Assembly (NCBI GenBank): GCA_963819845.1
Contig: CAWFXQ010000007.1
Coordinates: forward strand, 55,560 to 119,559
DNA: 64,000 bases
Source of the DNA: Miltoncostaeaceae bacterium
Lineage (GTDB): Bacteria > Actinomycetota > Thermoleophilia > Miltoncostaeales > Miltoncostaeaceae
Direction of reading: 5' to 3'
This document shows, one piece after another, positions 195 to 52,696 of the stretch. A model generated the notes under the pieces. The model did no database searches. It was not told the origin of the DNA and saw only the letters and a list, made by a program, of their open reading frames with translations. The translations under genes and the position numbers were made by a program. The stretch's first letter is position 1. The number at the start of each line of letters is the position of its first letter.

Positions 195-428
195 CTACAC
201 CGTGATGACGCCCTCGACCTCGGGGATCGCGCGGCGCAACTCGGCCTCGATTCCGAGCGTCAGGGTGGCCGTGGACATCGGGCACCCCCCGCAGGAGCCC
301 TGCATGCTGAGGTAGACGAAGCCCTCCTGGTCGAACTCGACGAGCTCGACGTCGCCGCCGTCCGCATGAAGCGCGGGCCTGATCTTGTCGAGGACGTCCT
401 CGATCTGCGAGAGAATCTCCGCCGACAT
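195..428 (-). CDS. NifU-like (Nfu C-terminal domain) Fe-S cluster scaffold protein, 77 aa
   Basis: Internal ATG of ORF 195..752. The sequence MSAEILSQIEDVLDKIRPALHADGGDVELV...SCGGCPMS...TL is the typical Nfu/NifU C-terminal CxxC domain. Confidence 0.85.
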   Translation of the reverse strand: MSAEILSQIEDVLDKIRPALHADGGDVELVEFDQEGFVYLSMQGSCGGCPMSTATLTLGIEAELRRAIPEVEGVITV

Positions 429-477
429 GCCGCCTCCAGGTGATCGCTCGGACGCGCCCCATCCTAGCGCCCTGCGG

Positions 478-1311
478 GTGGCGGCGGTCCAGATGGGCAG
501 CTCCGCCGAGCCCGAGCGCAACCGGCGGACGGCCGAGGCCCTCGTGCGCCGGGCCGCGGCCGCCGGGGCGCGCCTGGTCGTGCTGCCCGAGAAATGGCCC
601 TTCCTCCACGGGCCGCGGACCCTCGAGGGCGCCGAGCCCCTCGACGGGCCCTCGATCGCCGCCGTCCGCGCCTGGGCGGCTGAGCTGGGGATCGCGGTGG
701 TCGCCGGGAGCCTGCTGGAGGCCGTCAACGGCGACGCGCGCGCCCGCAACACCAGCGTGCTCGTGCGCCCGGACGGCTCCGTGGCGGCGGTCTACCGCAA
801 GATCCACATGTTCGACGTGGACGTCGGGGGCGTCGCCTACCGCGAGTCGGCCGCGACGGCGCCCGGCGACGAGGTCGTGGTGGCGGACGCCCTCGGCCAC
901 CGCATCGGCATGTCGGTCTGCTACGACCTGCGCTTCCCGGAGCTCTACCGGCGCCTCGCCGACGGGGGCGCCGAGATCATCGCCGTCCCCGCGGCGTTCA
1001 CGACCGTGACCGGCCGCGACCACTGGGAGCCGCTGCTGCGGGCGCGCGCGATCGAGAACCAGGCCTTCGTCATCGCCGCCGGCCAGCAGGGCCGCCACGA
1101 CGACGGCACCGAGACCCACGGGCGCAGCATGGTCGTCGACCCCTGGGGGATCGTCCTGGCCCAGGCCCCCGACGGGGAGGGGCTGGCGGTCGCCGACCTC
1201 GACTTCGCCCGCCTGCACGAGATCCGCGCCCATCTGCCGGCCCTGCGCCACCGGCGCCCGGACGCCTACGCGCTAGACCTCCCCCGCCCCGGGGACGTCG
1301 AAGGGCAGTGA
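478..1311 (+). CDS. Carbon-nitrogen hydrolase (nitrilase superfamily)
   Basis: ORF 385..1311. It carries the Glu-Lys-Cys triad contexts VVLPEKW, YRKIHMFD and MSVCYDLRFPE. The start is ambiguous: GTG 478 (VAAVQM) is preferred, because ATG 427 would overlap the divergent NifU start codon. Confidence 0.85.
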   Translation: MAAVQMGSSAEPERNRRTAEALVRRAAAAGARLVVLPEKWPFLHGPRTLEGAEPLDGPSIAAVRAWAAELGIAVVAGSLLEAVNGDARARNTSVLVRPDGSVAAVYRKIHMFDVDVGGVAYRESAATAPGDEVVVADALGHRIGMSVCYDLRFPELYRRLADGGAEIIAVPAAFTTVTGRDHWEPLLRARAIENQAFVIAAGQQGRHDDGTETHGRSMVVDPWGIVLAQAPDGEGLAVADLDFARLHEIRAHLPALRHRRPDAYALDLPRPGDVEGQ

Positions 1312-2439
1312 GGGGTCGGCGTGGGCCACGGCTCCGCCGACCAGCGTCAGCCGCGGCGTCAGCCCCGGGTCGAGCACGACCACGTCGGCGGGGTCGCCCG
1401 GAGCCATCCCCGGAAGGCCGAGCAGCGCCCGCGGCGCCCAGGCCGCGGCGGCGAGGGCGGCCGCGGTCCCGACGCCCGCCCCGGCCAGGGTCCGGGGGCC
1501 CGCGTCGAGGGCCATGGCGCTGCCGGCGAGGCGACCCCGCCGGGTCACGCGCCGCCCGTCCGACATCACGGCCCGCCCGGCCAGCAGGTGGCGGCCCGGC
1601 GGCGCGCCGGCGGCCGCGACCGCGTCGCTCACCAGAACCAGCCGCGGGCCCGCGGCCCGGGCGACGACCGCCGCCACCTCCGGCGCCACGTGCACGCCGT
1701 CGCCGATCAGCGAGACCGACGGGCGCGGGTCGGCGAGGGCCGCGGCGAGCGCCGAGGGCCGGCGGCTCTCGATGCCCCGCATGGCGTTGAGCGCGTGGGT
1801 CACCAGCCGGGCCCCGGCGTCGATCGCGGCCCGCCCCGTCCGCGCGTCGGCCTCCGTGTGGCCGATCGCCGCGACGGCCCCCGCCCGCGCGATCCGGCGC
1901 ACCGCCGCCAGCCCGCCGGGCCGCTCGGGCGCCAGCGTCACGATGGCCGGCGCGAAGGCGGCCAGCAGCCGGTCGACCTCGGCCGGGACGGGGTCGCGCA
2001 GCGCCCCGGCCGGGTGGGCGCCCGCCCGGCCGGGCGAGAGGAAGGGACCCTCCAGGTGGACGCCGAGCGCCCGCGCGCCGGGAGGTGTGCCAATTGGCCG
2101 CGCGCGCCTCGGCCAATTGGCCAAGGGCGCCAGCGCGGCCGCCGCCCTGCCGTAGGCCGCCGCGGAGCGGCTCACGAGGGTGGGGCAGAAGGCCGTGACG
2201 CCCGCCGCCGGGAGGGCCGCGGCGACGGCCGCCAGGGCCTCGGCGCCGCCGTCAACCTCGGCCCCGGCGTAGCCGTTCACCTGGAGGTCGACGAAGCCGG
2301 GGGCGACGATCCAACCCTCGGGGAGCTCCCGCACGGCGCGCCGCGGCCCGCCGGCGGCGATGCGGCCGCGGGCGACCGCGACCTCGCCGCGGATCAGGCG
2401 CCGGCCGGCGAGGACCCGGCCGCGCAGGACGAGCGTCAC
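1273..2439 (-). CDS. nagA: N-acetylglucosamine-6-phosphate deacetylase
   Basis: ORF 1273..2547. Motifs: APGFVDLQVNGYAG, HLEGPFLSP, IGHTEA, THALNAM. GTG start at 2439 overlaps the upstream stop by 4 nt (GTGA). Confidence 0.85.
   Translation of the reverse strand: MTLVLRGRVLAGRRLIRGEVAVARGRIAAGGPRRAVRELPEGWIVAPGFVDLQVNGYAGAEVDGGAEALAAVAAALPAAGVTAFCPTLVSRSAAAYGRAAAALAPLANWPRRARPIGTPPGARALGVHLEGPFLSPGRAGAHPAGALRDPVPAEVDRLLAAFAPAIVTLAPERPGGLAAVRRIARAGAVAAIGHTEADARTGRAAIDAGARLVTHALNAMRGIESRRPSALAAALADPRPSVSLIGDGVHVAPEVAAVVARAAGPRLVLVSDAVAAAGAPPGRHLLAGRAVMSDGRRVTRRGRLAGSAMALDAGPRTLAGAGVGTAAALAAAAWAPRALLGLPGMAPGDPADVVVLDPGLTPRLTLVGGAVAHADPSLPFDVPGAGEV
2088..2122. repeat. Paired palindrome module, copy A: TGCCAATTGGCC-N11-GGCCAATTGGCC, inside the nagA CDS
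   Basis: Read directly from the sequence. The two 12-mers start 23 bp apart. On the nagA strand the module is translated in frame as LANWPRRARPIGT. Confidence 0.85.
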
Positions 2440-15363: not shown

Positions 15364-15503
15364 GGCCACGGCGGAGACGGCCAAGTGGCCACGGCGGAGA
15401 CGGCAAGTGGCCACGCGGGACGGCAAGTGGCCACGGCGGAGACGGCCAAGTGGCCACGGCGGAGACGGCCAAGTGGCCACGGCGGAGACGGCCAAGTGGC
15501 CAC
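15364..15503. repeat. Tandem array: six cores of GGCCAAGTGGCC (two lack one C), each followed by the constant spacer ACGGCGGAGAC
   Basis: Cores start at 15379, 15402, 15422, 15444, 15467 and 15490, giving periods of 23/20/22/23/23. A leading partial unit GGCC-ACGGCGGAGAC is at 15364. The array begins 14 nt after the nth-like stop. Confidence 0.9.
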
Positions 15504-15574
15504 TCCTGGCGTCGCGGTCAGGCCGCCGCTTCGCCCGGCGGGTGGGCGTCTCGGGCGGCGAGCAGAGGCGCAAT

Positions 15575-15597
15575 ATCTCAGTCGGACCGACTAAGAT
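15575..15597. promoter_or_regulatory. HAIR-like inverted repeat (candidate HspR operator) upstream of dnaK
   Basis: ATCTCAGTCGG-A-CCGACTAAGAT has 11-bp arms with 1 mismatch. The core TCTCAGT-N7-ACTAAGA shares the 7-N7-7 geometry of HAIR, CTTGAGT-N7-ACTCAAG. The right arm GACTAAGATC is repeated as GACTTAGATC at 15614-15623. Confidence 0.4.
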
Positions 15598-34046: not shown

Positions 34047-34081
34047 GGCCAATTGGCCAAAGGCGCCACGGCCAATTGGCC
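34047..34081. repeat. Paired palindrome module, copy B: GGCCAATTGGCC-N11-GGCCAATTGGCC
   Basis: Two perfect 12-mers at 34047 and 34070, in the divergent intergenic region between the NAGPA-like gene (start 33986) and the histidine kinase. Confidence 0.9.
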
Positions 34082-34099
34082 GTCTGCGACACTGGCGGC

Positions 34100-35251
34100 G
34101 TGGTCGTCGCGCTGGTCCTGCTGGCGGTCGCGGTCGTCGCCGTCGGGCTCACCGGGCTCGTCGTCGCGCGCCGCCTCCGCGCCGATGCCCGGGCGGCCGA
34201 GGCGCGCGCCGAGCGCGCCGACGCCGAGATCGCGGTCGCCGAGCGCCGCAGCCGTCAGGTGCTCCAGGACCTGCCCTTCATCGCCCTGCGCGTCGACCGG
34301 GACGGGCGCCTGGTGGAGGCGAACCCGGTCGCCCTGGAGCGGTTCCCGTTCCTGGTCGCCGGGATGACGATGCTCGAGTCGTTCAGCGAGCACCGGCTGG
34401 CGCGGCGCGTGGGCCAGGCGCTGGACGACCTCTCGCGCCAGACCTTCGAGGTGCGCCTCTTCGCGGGCGGGCGCCGCACCTACCGGGCCGCGGTCGAGCC
34501 CTACGAGGTGGGCGACGCCCGGGAGGCGCTGGTGTTCCTCACCGACCAGAGCGAGGCCGTGGCCTACCAGGAGCTGCGCTCGCAGTTCGTCGCGAACGTC
34601 TCCCACGAGCTCCGCACCCCGCTCACCGGGCTCCGGGGACTGCTGGAGGCGCTCGACGACCCGCAGATGGACCCCGAGACGCGGCGCGACTTCGTGGCGC
34701 GGGCGGCGAGCGAGACCCAGCGGCTCGAGGCGCTGATCACCGACATCCTCTTCCTCTCGGAGCTGGAGACGACCCCGGGCCTGCCCTCCTCCTCGCGCAG
34801 CGACCTGGCCCAGGCGGCGACGGCCACGGTCGCCGACCTCCACGCGCTCGCCGAGGAGCACGGGGTGCGCCTCGAGGTCGACGCCGGCGGGCCGGCCTGG
34901 ACCCCCCTCACCGACCGGATGGCCGCGACGGTCGTGCGCAACCTCGTCGAGAACGCCGTCAAGTACGCCGGCCCCGGCGCCACGGCGTCGACGACCGTGA
35001 GCTCCGCCGACGGCTCCGTGACGCTGACCGTCGCCGACGACGGCGCCGGCATCCCGGAGCGTCACCTGCCGCACGTGTTCGAGCGCTTCTATCGCGCCGA
35101 CCCCTCGCGCTCGAAGCGCCTCGGCGGCACCGGCCTGGGCCTCTCGATCGTCAAGCACATCGCGGAACGATTCGGCGGCCGGGCCGAGGCCTCCTCCCGG
35201 GAGGGGTTCGGAACCACCGTCACCGTGACCCTCCCCGCCGAGGGGCCGTGA
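34100..35251 (+). CDS. Sensor histidine kinase (TM - PAS-like - HisKA - HATPase)
   Basis: H-box SHELRTPLTGL, N-box VENAVKYA, G1 DDGAGI, G2 GTGLGLSIV. Start is GTG 34100 or TTG 34076 (the latter lies inside the repeat). No response regulator is adjacent. Confidence 0.85.
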   Translation: MVVALVLLAVAVVAVGLTGLVVARRLRADARAAEARAERADAEIAVAERRSRQVLQDLPFIALRVDRDGRLVEANPVALERFPFLVAGMTMLESFSEHRLARRVGQALDDLSRQTFEVRLFAGGRRTYRAAVEPYEVGDAREALVFLTDQSEAVAYQELRSQFVANVSHELRTPLTGLRGLLEALDDPQMDPETRRDFVARAASETQRLEALITDILFLSELETTPGLPSSSRSDLAQAATATVADLHALAEEHGVRLEVDAGGPAWTPLTDRMAATVVRNLVENAVKYAGPGATASTTVSSADGSVTLTVADDGAGIPERHLPHVFERFYRADPSRSKRLGGTGLGLSIVKHIAERFGGRAEASSREGFGTTVTVTLPAEGP

Positions 35252-50633: not shown

Positions 50634-50646
50634 CGCCTCGTCCCGA

Positions 50647-50699: not shown

Positions 50700-50734
50700 G
50701 GCCAATTGGCCATCGCGCGCTCGGCCAATCGGCC
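50700..50734. repeat. Paired palindrome module, copy C1: GGCCAATTGGCC-N11-GGCCAATCGGCC
   Basis: Read directly. The 12-mers are at 50700 and 50723. Confidence 0.9.
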
Positions 50735-50807: not shown

Positions 50808-50842
50808 GGCCATTTGGCCGTCGGGTGGGCGGCCAATCGGTT
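50808..50842. repeat. Paired palindrome module, copy C2 (degenerate): GGCCATTTGGCC-N11-GGCCAATCGGTT
   Basis: Read directly. The 12-mers are at 50808 and 50831, and the second runs into a TTGACA hexamer. Confidence 0.8.
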
Positions 50843-50870
50843 GACAAGCGGCACGCCCTCGTGCTCCTTT

Positions 50871-50921: not shown

Positions 50922-51449
50922 ATGGCGCGGAGCCTGTACAAGGGGCAGGGACTGGGGAACCGGCCACCGTGTCTGCTCTGCATGGGACCGGGGGAGGGGG
51001 ACCGGGCCGAGCTGCGCCTGCCGTACGGCGTGTCGGTGTGGCTCTGCGCGGCGCACCGGAGCCTCGAGTTCGGGGTCCTGAGGTCGCTTCGGGAGGGAGC
51101 CCCCACCGCCCGGGGTCGACCCCCAGCCACCGCCGGGCGGGTGGCCGGGGCAGGGTCGTGTGGAGGCCCAGGACGACCCTGCCCCGACCTTCGCCGCCCC
51201 CGGACCCTGCACGACCTCGCGTGCCCGACGACTGGGCGGAGGGGTTCCCCGACGACCGCGCCGGACCATCACGTCGGCCCGGACCGGGGGGCGGGGCGGG
51301 TCGTGCAGCGTGCACGTGCAGGGCAGGCACGGCGCGGACCCGGGGTCGCGTGGCGGACGACCTCATGCGCTCTTGGACCCGGCCGGGTCAAGAGGCCGCA
51401 GGTCACCGGAGTGCCGGCCGGCAGCCGGTTGCGAGCAGCCGGTGGCTAG
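50922..51449 (+). CDS. Hypothetical protein with an N-terminal CxxC...CxxH zinc-ribbon-like segment and an R/G/P-rich tail
   Basis: Internal ATG of ORF 50706..51449, with high GC3 throughout. Sequence MARSLYKGQGLGNRPPCLLCMGPGEGDRAELRLPYGVSVWLCAAHRSLEF. No family recognised, and all three frames are open here. Confidence 0.3.
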   Translation: MARSLYKGQGLGNRPPCLLCMGPGEGDRAELRLPYGVSVWLCAAHRSLEFGVLRSLREGAPTARGRPPATAGRVAGAGSCGGPGRPCPDLRRPRTLHDLACPTTGRRGSPTTAPDHHVGPDRGAGRVVQRARAGQARRGPGVAWRTTSCALGPGRVKRPQVTGVPAGSRLRAAGG

Positions 51450-51610: not shown

Positions 51611-52009
51611 TCAGCCCAGCAGGCCGGCGCCGGCCAGCAGCGTTGCCGTGTCCCAGTAGACGCGCTCCTCACGGATCAGGTCGCCCGCCATCTCGCACAC
51701 GCTGACACCGCGCAGCTCGACCTGCTCGCCGCGGGCGGGCCAGCCGGGCATCTCGCCCGTGTGGGTGCCCTTCCAGGTCCATTCCACGGTGACCGTGCCG
51801 TCCTCGCCCCGTGTCTCCTTGTGGATCTCAAGCGAACAGTCGGGCAGCGCGTTCACGGAGTTCTGGGCGTGCTCTGCGATCGCCTCCCGTCCCTCGAGAC
51901 GCGCGGGGGGCAACGCGTACTCGATCCGGACGCCGTCGGGGGTGAACGCCTGCGCCACGGACTCGCCGCTTCGCCCGTTCCACGCCTGCTGAAGCCTGGT
52001 GAGCGCCAT
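51611..52009 (-). CDS. SnoaL-like (NTF2 superfamily) ester-cyclase-type protein
   Basis: ORF 51611..52009. ...EWTWKGTHTGEMPG.PA.G..VELRGVSVCEMAGDLIREERVYWD is typical of the SnoaL family. Ribosome-binding site GAGAGGAGG. Confidence 0.8.
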   Translation of the reverse strand: MALTRLQQAWNGRSGESVAQAFTPDGVRIEYALPPARLEGREAIAEHAQNSVNALPDCSLEIHKETRGEDGTVTVEWTWKGTHTGEMPGWPARGEQVELRGVSVCEMAGDLIREERVYWDTATLLAGAGLLG

Positions 52010-52318: not shown

Positions 52319-52696
52319 GATGCCGCACCCCGCCTTCCAGAGGCGCCGGGCGGGGCGGGACTTCGTCGCATCCCTCGCCCGGGTGGGCGTCGGCCGGGTG
52401 CCTGACGCGGGCGCGGCATCGGGCGCTCGACGCCCACCGGGAGGGTGGTCCCGCCTCCGCCGGGCCGCCGCCGCCGCCCGGGGTCCTATTCCTGGCCCGC
52501 GCTGCGGCGCGAGGCGGAGCGGCGGTTCGCCGCCGGATAGGACCCGCGGCGCGTCGTCGAGGCCCTCCTCGCCCGGGAGCGGGCCGGCCGGGCGGTGCCG
52601 CCGTCGCGGCGGACCATGCGGCGCTGGTTCGCGGAGGGCCGCTGGCGCGGTGACGGCTCGCGCCCGGCGCACCGGCCGCGCCCGCCCCGCCCGCCC

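Follow-up and report, generated by a model that had tools for sequence, protein, structure and literature searches.

A 23-bp-phased pair of palindromes, embedded in frame in nagA of a Miltoncostaeaceae bacterium and conserved as DNA, as a candidate protein-binding site

The palindromes of 12–16 bp that are bound by dimers and can lie within genes include parS/ParB sites, Noc-binding sites, SlmA-binding sites and matS, as well as operators such as lacO2, the cre sites of CcpA and the PurR boxes. At OR1-OR2-OR3 of lambda, cooperative dimers of the CI repressor stand 23–24 bp apart from centre to centre, and in parC/ParR and tubC/TubR an array of centromere or iteron repeats lies upstream of the gene for the protein that binds it. 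InsA of IS1 is a small protein with a zinc finger and a helix-turn-helix (HTH) that binds the terminal inverted repeats of IS1, and HIP1 (GCGATCGC) of cyanobacteria is an 8-mer that occurs in single copies about once per kilobase. Here we analyse a module of two palindromes that lies inside nagA, the gene for N-acetylglucosamine-6-phosphate deacetylase, in a 64-kb stretch of DNA (hereafter the window) from contig CAWFXQ010000007.1 of a Miltoncostaeaceae bacterium. We hold with high confidence that this module belongs to a lineage-wide family selected at the level of DNA, and we favour, with moderate confidence, the reading that it is an in-frame-embedded pair of binding sites for a zinc-finger/HTH-like protein and one of a lineage-wide family of such sites.

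The module occupies positions 2088–2122 and consists of a 12-mer, an 11-nt spacer and a second 12-mer (TGCCAATTGGCC-gcgcgcgcctc-GGCCAATTGGCC), the two arms being centred 23 bp apart; the letters and their translation bear out exactly the sequence-only reading of this DNA, which had picked out the segment as a paired palindrome in frame in nagA. Each arm contains the core GCCAATTGGC. As read by nagA on the minus strand, the module is LANWPRRARPIGT, that is L-ANW-PRRAR-PIG-T within the longer translation APLANWPRRARPIGTPPGARALGVHLEGPF, with the core at 2112–2121 giving ANW (GCC AAT TGG) and the core at 2089–2098 giving (R)PIG (CGG CCA ATT GGC). Because the two palindromes lie 23 nt apart, they are read in different frames, first as ANW and then as PIG. 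None of the three frames of the core contains a stop codon; they read ANW, PIG and QL. At the window's G+C content of 72–83%, chance would supply 0.14 copies of CCAATTGG and, when one mismatch is allowed, 0.84 of GCCAATTGGC; the actual counts are 5 and 11, neither of which was reached in any of 100 shuffles.

The host gene lies at 1273–2439 on the minus strand and encodes 388 aa from the start used in databases, in an open frame that extends to 2547. Its product matches Pfam Amidohydro_1 and solved N-acetylglucosamine-6-phosphate deacetylases (E = 8e-45 to 8e-24), has a QxN variant of the first metal-binding motif and carries HLEGPF at residues 128–133; codon-position GC is 0.86/0.64/0.96. The order of an unknown 434-aa gene, nagA, a convergent CN-hydrolase gene and nifU is conserved, and the nagA copies compared here are therefore orthologues. 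The 3′ ends of nagA and of the CN-hydrolase gene (427–1311, plus strand) overlap by 39 nt (1273–1311), as against 4 nt in orthologous loci. In one orthologue (L125; P0015, contig CAWEGW010000015.1) the protein has 360 aa and an altered C-terminus, probably through a frameshift or an assembly error, and several genes around it are also called differently than in other genomes.

Compared with solved NagA structures, the window protein has 8–11 extra residues exactly at the module. Close orthologues that bear the insert are 76–81% identical to the window protein and share the form xANWxxxxxPIGx, a segment 9 residues longer than in more distant orthologues, which lack the insert and read A-xRWP-xxGAR; no orthologue without the palindromes was found to carry a conserved segment of equal length in their place. 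The loop insertion of 12–13 residues proposed from the sequence alone thus stands as an insertion but not at that length, the gain being 9 residues against the nearest orthologues and 8–11 against structures. In DNA the extra segment amounts to 27 nt on the minus strand, at approximately 2086–2112, with boundaries that are not exactly placeable: the alignment of outgroup and ingroup nagA DNA is ambiguous, admits no unique position for the 27 nt, and includes an ancestral CGC TGG CCA TCG GC that resembles a proto-site. In a distance tree that left out the variable region and included 12 insert-bearing proteins, these proteins together with P0012, which has no insert, were monophyletic in 95 of 100 bootstraps, and the insert-bearers alone never were. 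P0012 nests among the insert-bearing proteins, and we therefore infer one gain of the nagA insert followed by one loss. An AlphaFold2 model built with 37 orthologues (mean predicted local distance difference test score, pLDDT, 90.5; predicted template modelling score, pTM, 0.91) places the insert in a coil between the helix 93–106 and the HLE strand 128–130, with residues 110–114 below a pLDDT of 50; such a loop, immediately before the HLEGPF strand, is where the sequence-only reading had expected it.

It is the DNA of this segment that has been kept. In a comparison of seven insert-bearing nagA orthologues with two that lack the insert, GCC AAT TGG ... CCA ATT GGC stands in all seven of the former, and the five spacer codons and the flanks vary among them, synonymous sites included. 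Across the codon alignment of the seven genes, pairwise identity is 74–82% overall (about 22% divergence) and 55–67% at third positions, and only 19% of third positions are invariant. Against this background no invariant runs in the gene are longer than the two GCCAATTGGC cores: each core measures 10 nt, and all other runs, those in the catalytic motifs included, stop at 8 nt or fewer. With G+C at 96% of its third positions, nagA rarely uses AAT, ATT or CCA; because the cores are invariant with these rare codons kept, selection is operating on the DNA, and what evolution has preserved is the two sites and not the loop that they encode. At the protein level, the first core reads ANW in 9 of the 12 insert-bearing proteins, ATW in 2 and AKW in 1, and the second reads PIG in all 12. 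The AKW of the single orthologue corresponds to GCCAAGTGGC, a core variant that recurs in an array elsewhere in the window (see below).

The same architecture is found throughout the lineage. Scanning one genome per prokaryotic species (596 Gb) for the pattern GCCAATTGGC-N(3-33)-GCCAATTGGC gave at least 118 loci, taken at 8 kb each. Among the matches listed, and where the locus has a G+C content of 68% or more, the 10-nt cores are separated by 13 nt in 59 of 83 pairs, equivalent to 23 bp from centre to centre; for any one spacing, about 0.5 matches would be expected by chance in 596 Gb under uniform base composition. These 23-bp loci, likewise among the matches listed, come almost entirely from metagenome-assembled genomes named Miltoncostaeaceae, Thermoleophilia, Gaiellales, ‘uncultured Actinomycetes’ or Actinomycetota. 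Common to the copies are the two 10-nt cores alone. The spacers are unrelated between most of them, the positions that flank the core vary by lineage (T/G-GCCAATTGGC-C/A in Miltoncostaeaceae, C-GCCAATTGGC-G in others), and recurrent 17-mers such as GGCCAATTGGCCACGCG appear in different loci. We did not find the motif GCCAATTGGC in a relevant context in the searchable literature, and the Miltoncostaea literature makes no mention of such repeats. Tandem repeats that hold GCCAATTGGC at periods of 22, 24, 30 or 42 bp also occur, in Tannerella/Tannerellaceae (L023, L094, L002, L077, L093 and L100) and at L009 and L039; these were rejected as members of the family, being of other periods and from unrelated lineages.

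Placement was assessed with a purpose-made gene caller based on codon-position GC, which reproduced the known genes of the window. Among the matches listed, intergenic DNA accounts for 42 of 56 modules, gene interiors for 8 and contact with a called gene end for 6, and the distinct module-bearing intergenic regions are convergent in 14 cases, codirectional in 14 and divergent in 2–4, where random placement would give about 1:2:1. Modules typically lie 6–60 bp past a stop codon, and between convergent genes there is often one for each gene end. This position suggests roadblock-type termination, insulation or chromosome structuring. Placement upstream of genes, as in a regulon, was not seen: only 2–4 of about 32 module-bearing intergenic regions are divergent, and the neighbouring genes share no functional theme.

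Residence within coding sequence also recurs, as the sequence-only reading had wondered it might. Outside nagA, in-frame modules are present in a BioF/KBL-like gene, a MetRS gene, an EgtB-like gene, a glycosyltransferase gene and one further conserved gene. The BioF/KBL-like gene (L015) reads ...RANWRSADAPIGA... and is 11 residues longer there than its solved homologues; the MetRS of Gaiellales (L041) reads ...AANWHSPQLPIGG... and is 6 residues longer than its own. The EgtB-like gene has QLADDPLANW in an interdomain linker, the module of the glycosyltransferase reads PIGIQALSQL, and the further gene retains both cores in three species. Among MetRS orthologues the motif is common to a clade and is decaying in many of its members (SNW, RNW, PID, PTG, SIG). 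Modules have thus come to reside in frame more than once, each time in a variable loop or linker, and their maintenance there is not universal.

A protein family linked to the modules was found by clustering the genes near them and then reading the non-coding kilobase that follows position 50634 of the window. The protein has about 160 residues, with an N-terminal CxxC...CxxH (CCCH) zinc finger and an HTH-like C-terminus. Its invariant residues include C17, C20, C42 and H45 (LYKxxxLGxxPPCxxC...GVSVWLCxxH), and it has a conserved RPGSYxWP motif and a C-terminal PPSxRTMRRWFxEGRW. Searches of Pfam and NCBIfam gave zero matches, the homologues all bear the source name ‘hypothetical protein’, and no description of the protein was found in the searchable literature; the family amounts to 344 clusters at 50% identity among 1.84 billion representatives. 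Plasmid and phage collections held zero homologues, and no conserved neighbour genes were found. The structure model (mean pLDDT 84.5) shows two β-hairpins followed by helices, and Foldseek returned nothing significant from the PDB (best E = 1.9, to zinc-ribbon ribosomal proteins, then RING/PHD fingers at about 2). No HUH, DDE, transposase or recombinase motif was found in the protein, nor any invariant His-hydrophobic-His.

The gene stands in 9 of about 65 high-GC loci selected by their modules, and in 7 of the 9 one or two modules lie 65–280 bp upstream of its start. Linkage can be tested from the other side in 80 metagenome loci picked by two peptide motifs of the protein alone, and because no site entered into their selection, this test is not circular. 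There, cores within one mismatch of GCCAATTGGC number 68 at −400..−1 relative to the gene start, 19 at +524..+595, just past the stop, and 8 elsewhere (about 270 kb), the upstream cores peaking at −113/−90 as pairs 23 bp apart. When the pattern is relaxed to CCAnnTGG pairs spaced by 22–24 bp, their density is 2.7 per kb over the 300 bp before the start and 0.043 per kb elsewhere, an excess of about 60-fold. To the eye, 12-bp sites about 23 bp apart stand upstream in almost all homologues, as a pair or as an array, and in some homologues the upstream arrays comprise up to ten GGCCAA(A/G)TGGCC units. Across clades of the protein the sites take the forms GCCAATTGGC, GTCAATTGGC, TCCCACTTGGGA, GCGCACTTGGGCC...GCCCCAAGTGCGC, CCACTTTGCCC...GGGCAAAGTG and CGCCACTTGTCG...CGACAATTGGTG, and paralogues on one contig differ in their variant (L143/L144, L133/L155). 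Again as read by eye, the half-site nearer the promoter often lies over a −35-like TTGACA/TTGCGA hexamer. In Miltoncostaeaceae the sites lie only upstream of the gene; in some other clades they lie on both sides. In many homologues among L127–L160, a leader motif GGTG(C/G)TGATC and GGCAC repeats stand between the site pair and the start, about 45 bp upstream. In position and in clade covariation, the site pairs resemble an autoregulated operator, and the zinc-finger/HTH-like protein is probably their cognate binder.

The remaining copies in the window repeat these arrangements, each of them, like the nagA module, sitting in a pair or array of 23-bp period. A perfect module, GGCCAATTGGCC-aaaggcgccac-GGCCAATTGGCC, lies at 34047–34081 between a divergent unknown gene (32202–~33987, minus strand) and a histidine-kinase gene (34076–35251, plus strand). 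Another, GGCCAATTGGCC-atcgcgcgctc-GGCCAATCGGCC, lies at 50700–50734, 67 bp past the stop codon of an ATP-sulfurylase gene and about 190–220 bp upstream of a decayed copy of the zinc-finger/HTH gene. No two of the pairs at 2088, 34047 and 50700 have related spacers. A degenerate module, GGCCATTTGGCC-gtcgggtgggc-GGCCAATCGGTT, follows 73 bp after the pair at 50700–50734, at 50808–50842; it precedes the ATG at 50923 by about 80 bp, and its last half overlaps a TTGACA hexamer (50841–50846). The decayed gene itself is in two pieces on the plus strand: an N-terminal fragment at 50923–51100 (MARSLYKGQGLGNRPPCLLCMG...GVSVWLCAAHRSLEF) and a C-terminal fragment of the same family at 52460–52650 (RRPGSYSWPALRREAERRFAAG, an in-frame stop, and on to PPSRRTMRRWFAEGRW), in a different frame from the first. 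For about 1 kb after 50634 the DNA shows no coding periodicity, and the ~1.36 kb between the two pieces carries a SnoaL-like gene on the opposite strand (51611–52009). Finally, an array of about six tandem 23-bp units (GGCCAAGTGGCC and ACGGCGGAGAC) lies at 15364–15503 on the plus strand, between nth and dnaK; its core is the variant GCCAAGTGGC of the same family. This array stands just upstream of a HAIR-like inverted repeat, CTCAGT-N7-ACTAAG (~15572–15590), and its AAGT core variant and its period recur in arrays upstream of the zinc-finger/HTH genes of L176 and L172. The window genes beside modules (histidine kinase, ATP sulfurylase, nth/dnaK) have no common theme. Module density in the window is about 1 per 16 kb, and the four loci, at 2.1, 15.4, 34.0 and 50.7 kb, are separated by gaps of 13.3, 18.6 and 16.7 kb; this spacing is more even than random (p ~0.02, post hoc) and could hint at a chromosome-structural role.

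The anatomy of the module, its insertion, its conservation as DNA, the family and the linkage of gene and sites are shown by these data, whereas binding of the sites by the protein is inferred. In the reading that we favour, a member of the family would be two or more palindromes of 10–12 bp (GCCAATTGGC here) in a fixed 23-bp phase with a free spacer, each palindrome being bound by a symmetric dimer and neighbouring dimers cooperating across the 23 bp. Recognition of duplex DNA by dimers is proposed because the arms are palindromic, the phase is fixed and the spacer free, some copies form direct arrays, the pairs take a promoter-region position and their variants covary with protein clade. A pair located about 90–115 bp before the gene start may serve autoregulation of the protein's own gene, as the overlap of the proximal half-site with the −35-like hexamer suggests. 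In Miltoncostaeaceae and their relatives the sites would have spread over the chromosome, mostly to positions just past stop codons. The ancestor of a single subclade would have acquired the nagA copy as 27 nt in frame. The copy could be tolerated there because the loop is disordered and the palindrome is free of stops in any frame, and it would since have been retained by selection on DNA, behaving as an intragenic binding site; if the module is such a site pair, DNA-level selection on both cores follows. The likeliest effect of binding inside nagA would be a transcription roadblock or modulation, or a chromosome-structural role. As to the physiological role of the dispersed sites, our confidence is low. 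The sequence-only reading had offered an intragenic operator or hairpin as an alternative, and of these two the operator lies closest to the evidence, given that sites precede the zinc-finger/HTH gene, and the hairpin is disfavoured. A bolder version, which we regard as possible but doubtful, is a new genome-wide system of Thermoleophilia with several paralogues per genome, each with its own 23-bp-phased variant and, in some lineages, with sites at gene ends and in essential genes, which might act as roadblocks or terminators or as domain boundaries; or the protein might drive a new kind of mini mobile element that plants its own sites, even in frame within genes.

Several observations weigh against the binding-site reading. 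Gene ends are equally the places that tolerate neutral or selfish repeats best, and the link between protein and sites is one of genomic association and clade-level covariation, which shared ancestry may partly explain. An origin of the sites by point mutation leaves the 27 nt in nagA and the 11 additional residues in the BioF-like gene unexplained. The ~180-bp unit at L055 described below, which stands alone between convergent genes, hints at mobility, and the decay of the Gaiellales MetRS insert in many lineages means that not every intragenic copy is maintained. Moreover, strict or relaxed skeletons catch upstream pairs in only about one-third to one-half of the gene-selected loci, and in the L018/L161 clade a perfect pair comes after the gene, not before it.

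The modules might instead be a selfish palindromic mini-element of the kind of repetitive extragenic palindromes (REPs), miniature inverted-repeat transposable elements (MITEs) or Rickettsia palindromic elements (RPEs), copied around the genome with no host function, and the linked gene would be its mobilising or regulatory protein, following the logic of RAYT with REPs and of InsA with IS1 ends. Discrete in-frame length gains do coincide with modules in several unrelated genes, one of them, in MetRS, now decaying; the 17-mers recur in different loci, and a bias toward convergent intergenic regions is typical of tolerated repeats. The linked gene for its part is multi-copy, has decayed copies (in the window and at L067) and no conserved neighbours, and in some clades is flanked by sites on both sides. 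A larger element around the modules was sought by BLAST of masked flanks, which gave mostly orthology and one ~180-bp unit in one genome. This module-core-module unit at L055 is 90% identical to the regions upstream of two gene copies in the same genome (L026 and L067). Its core of ~75–95 bp (GGCCCGAGGCCGGCCGCCGCGCCCC...GCCGGCCTCGACGGGCCCGCAGGGCCCG) contains two internal hairpins, shows about 90% identity among L026 3447–3531, L055 2508–2607 and L067 3553–3625, is always bracketed by modules, and lies twice upstream of a zinc-finger/HTH gene and once alone. In comparison with MITEs, whole-unit similarity was found for this one unit only, the spacers being unrelated between most copies, and no terminal inverted repeats with a definable target-site duplication were seen. 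The same clustering that surfaced the zinc-finger/HTH gene found no transposase among the recurrent module-neighbour genes, and ORFs in the gene-poor gaps beside modules yielded nothing convincing. The linked protein lacks any motif of a transposase or recombinase, HUH and DDE included, was not found in plasmid or phage collections and, in Miltoncostaeaceae, has sites only upstream of its gene. The nagA cores are the most conserved DNA of their gene over ~22% divergence with the spacer left free, which is the mark of two selected sites and not of a drifting insertion. On balance we consider a purely selfish element unlikely.

Quite unlikely, in our judgement, is a function in RNA or single-stranded DNA, whereby the module would form a hairpin with a 12–15-bp stem and a 5–11-nt loop and would act as a U-tract-less terminator, a 3′-end stabiliser or, in nagA, an attenuator. 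The habit of following stop codons closely, often at each of two convergent gene ends, would suit such a structure, and some copies do form highly stable folds (L005 at −44 kcal/mol, z −7.4; the nagA copy of L120 at −36 kcal/mol, z −6.0), but that of the window nagA only marginally beats shuffles (z −2.0) and folds as two small hairpins. The core-flanking positions covary across the module, with z of 3–5.7 for the innermost pairs; this covariation, however, ends after 2–3 positions and is equally expected from two like-typed palindromes, and, fitting both readings, it was set aside as a means of telling them apart. The modules are not followed by a T tract, T amounting to 13–14% downstream as it does upstream, so that they do not look like intrinsic terminators, and the Rfam 15 covariance models, run against the window and six module-rich loci, detected tRNAs only. 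Each arm is itself a perfect palindrome, which a symmetric dimer on duplex DNA needs and a hairpin does not; the fixed 23-bp phase with a free spacer fits the spacing between bound proteins, and direct arrays of 6–10 units together with sites over a −35-like hexamer fit DNA recognition. A third possibility is that ANW...PIG is an adaptation of NagA as a protein, a functional loop by the metal site whose likeness to intergenic palindromes is incidental. The loop does precede the metal-binding HLEGPF strand, and in many orthologues a W-P at this position predates the insert. Yet rare AAT, ATT and CCA are kept in 7 of 7 genes at a GC3 of 0.96, the same 35-bp architecture stands in intergenic DNA and, in other frames, in other genes, P0012 has lost the segment, and the loop is predicted to be disordered. 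This explanation is very improbable and, for practical purposes, refuted.

What emerges is a coding sequence with a second, non-protein layer, in which two inserted DNA sites are kept more strictly than the catalytic motifs. An unannotated family of hypothetical proteins gains a candidate DNA motif and a spacing rule, and a poorly studied, mostly uncultured actinobacterial class gains a dispersed repeat family that is undescribed in the searchable literature. Should the sites prove to be protein-dependent terminators, insulators, chromosome organisers or the footprint of a mobile element, they would bear on how transcription ends in very GC-rich bacteria and on how repertoires of binding sites spread; as roadblocks or terminators, they would act in organisms without U-tract terminators.

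How, then, does this family compare with the systems already described? The likeness to RPEs, raised by the sequence-only reading, holds for the tolerance of in-frame residence: both are dispersed palindromic repeats that occur in frame in several unrelated housekeeping genes and add a short loop peptide. It does not extend further. RPEs measure about 100–150 bp, follow a family consensus from end to end and evolve together with the protein that hosts them, whereas the lengths here are 27 nt for the insert and 35 nt for the module, sharing between copies is confined to the 10-nt cores, the spacer is not conserved, the cores are under purifying selection as DNA, and sequence and host lineage are unrelated; membership was accordingly rejected. 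The REP/REPIN/BIME repeats of Enterobacteria and Pseudomonas, with their RAYT proteins, resemble the modules in their units of 35–37 nt with two complementary arms and a variable middle, in their many copies, mostly extragenic after genes or between convergent genes, as singles, doublets and clusters, and in a dedicated lineage-specific protein gene flanked by repeats. The modules differ from them in having self-palindromic arms, a strict 23-bp phase, direct arrays and no GTAG-type head, in a linked protein with neither HUH/Y1 nor a Pfam match, in a core kept across taxa of family to order level, and in copies that sit in frame inside genes and are conserved there. As a candidate for membership the modules share the extragenic placement at 3′ ends, but a link to RAYT, checked on the repeat-flanked gene, was not found, and this assignment too was rejected.

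Sites such as parS and those of Noc, SlmA and matS, together with intragenic operators, likewise number in the tens to hundreds per genome and, where they fall in coding sequence, are conserved as DNA against synonymous drift; they arise, however, in existing codons and not as discrete insertions, are not organised as obligate pairs or arrays in 23-bp phase and are bound by proteins of known families. The lambda operators and the parC and tubC arrays share with the modules the palindrome spacing of about 23 bp, the array upstream of the gene of the presumed binder and the proximal site over a −35-like hexamer, but module sites are also dispersed far from the gene, and there is neither a partner NTPase or operon nor a relative of solved fold. 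InsA of IS1 is matched by an N-terminal zinc finger, a C-terminal HTH-like part and a gene bordered by presumed sites; no sequence similarity to it was detected in the linked protein, no transposase ORF lies downstream, and in the lineage of the window the sites are upstream only. HIP1, too, is a lineage-specific palindrome in coding and non-coding DNA whose orthologous positions are conserved beyond neutral expectation, but unlike the modules it has neither a fixed pairing nor a comparable linked gene for a DNA-binding protein. The family is thus best described as a combination of known kinds, namely dispersed repeats of protein sites and in-frame palindromic inserts, with a new protein family, and there is a realistic chance that it represents something more distinct.

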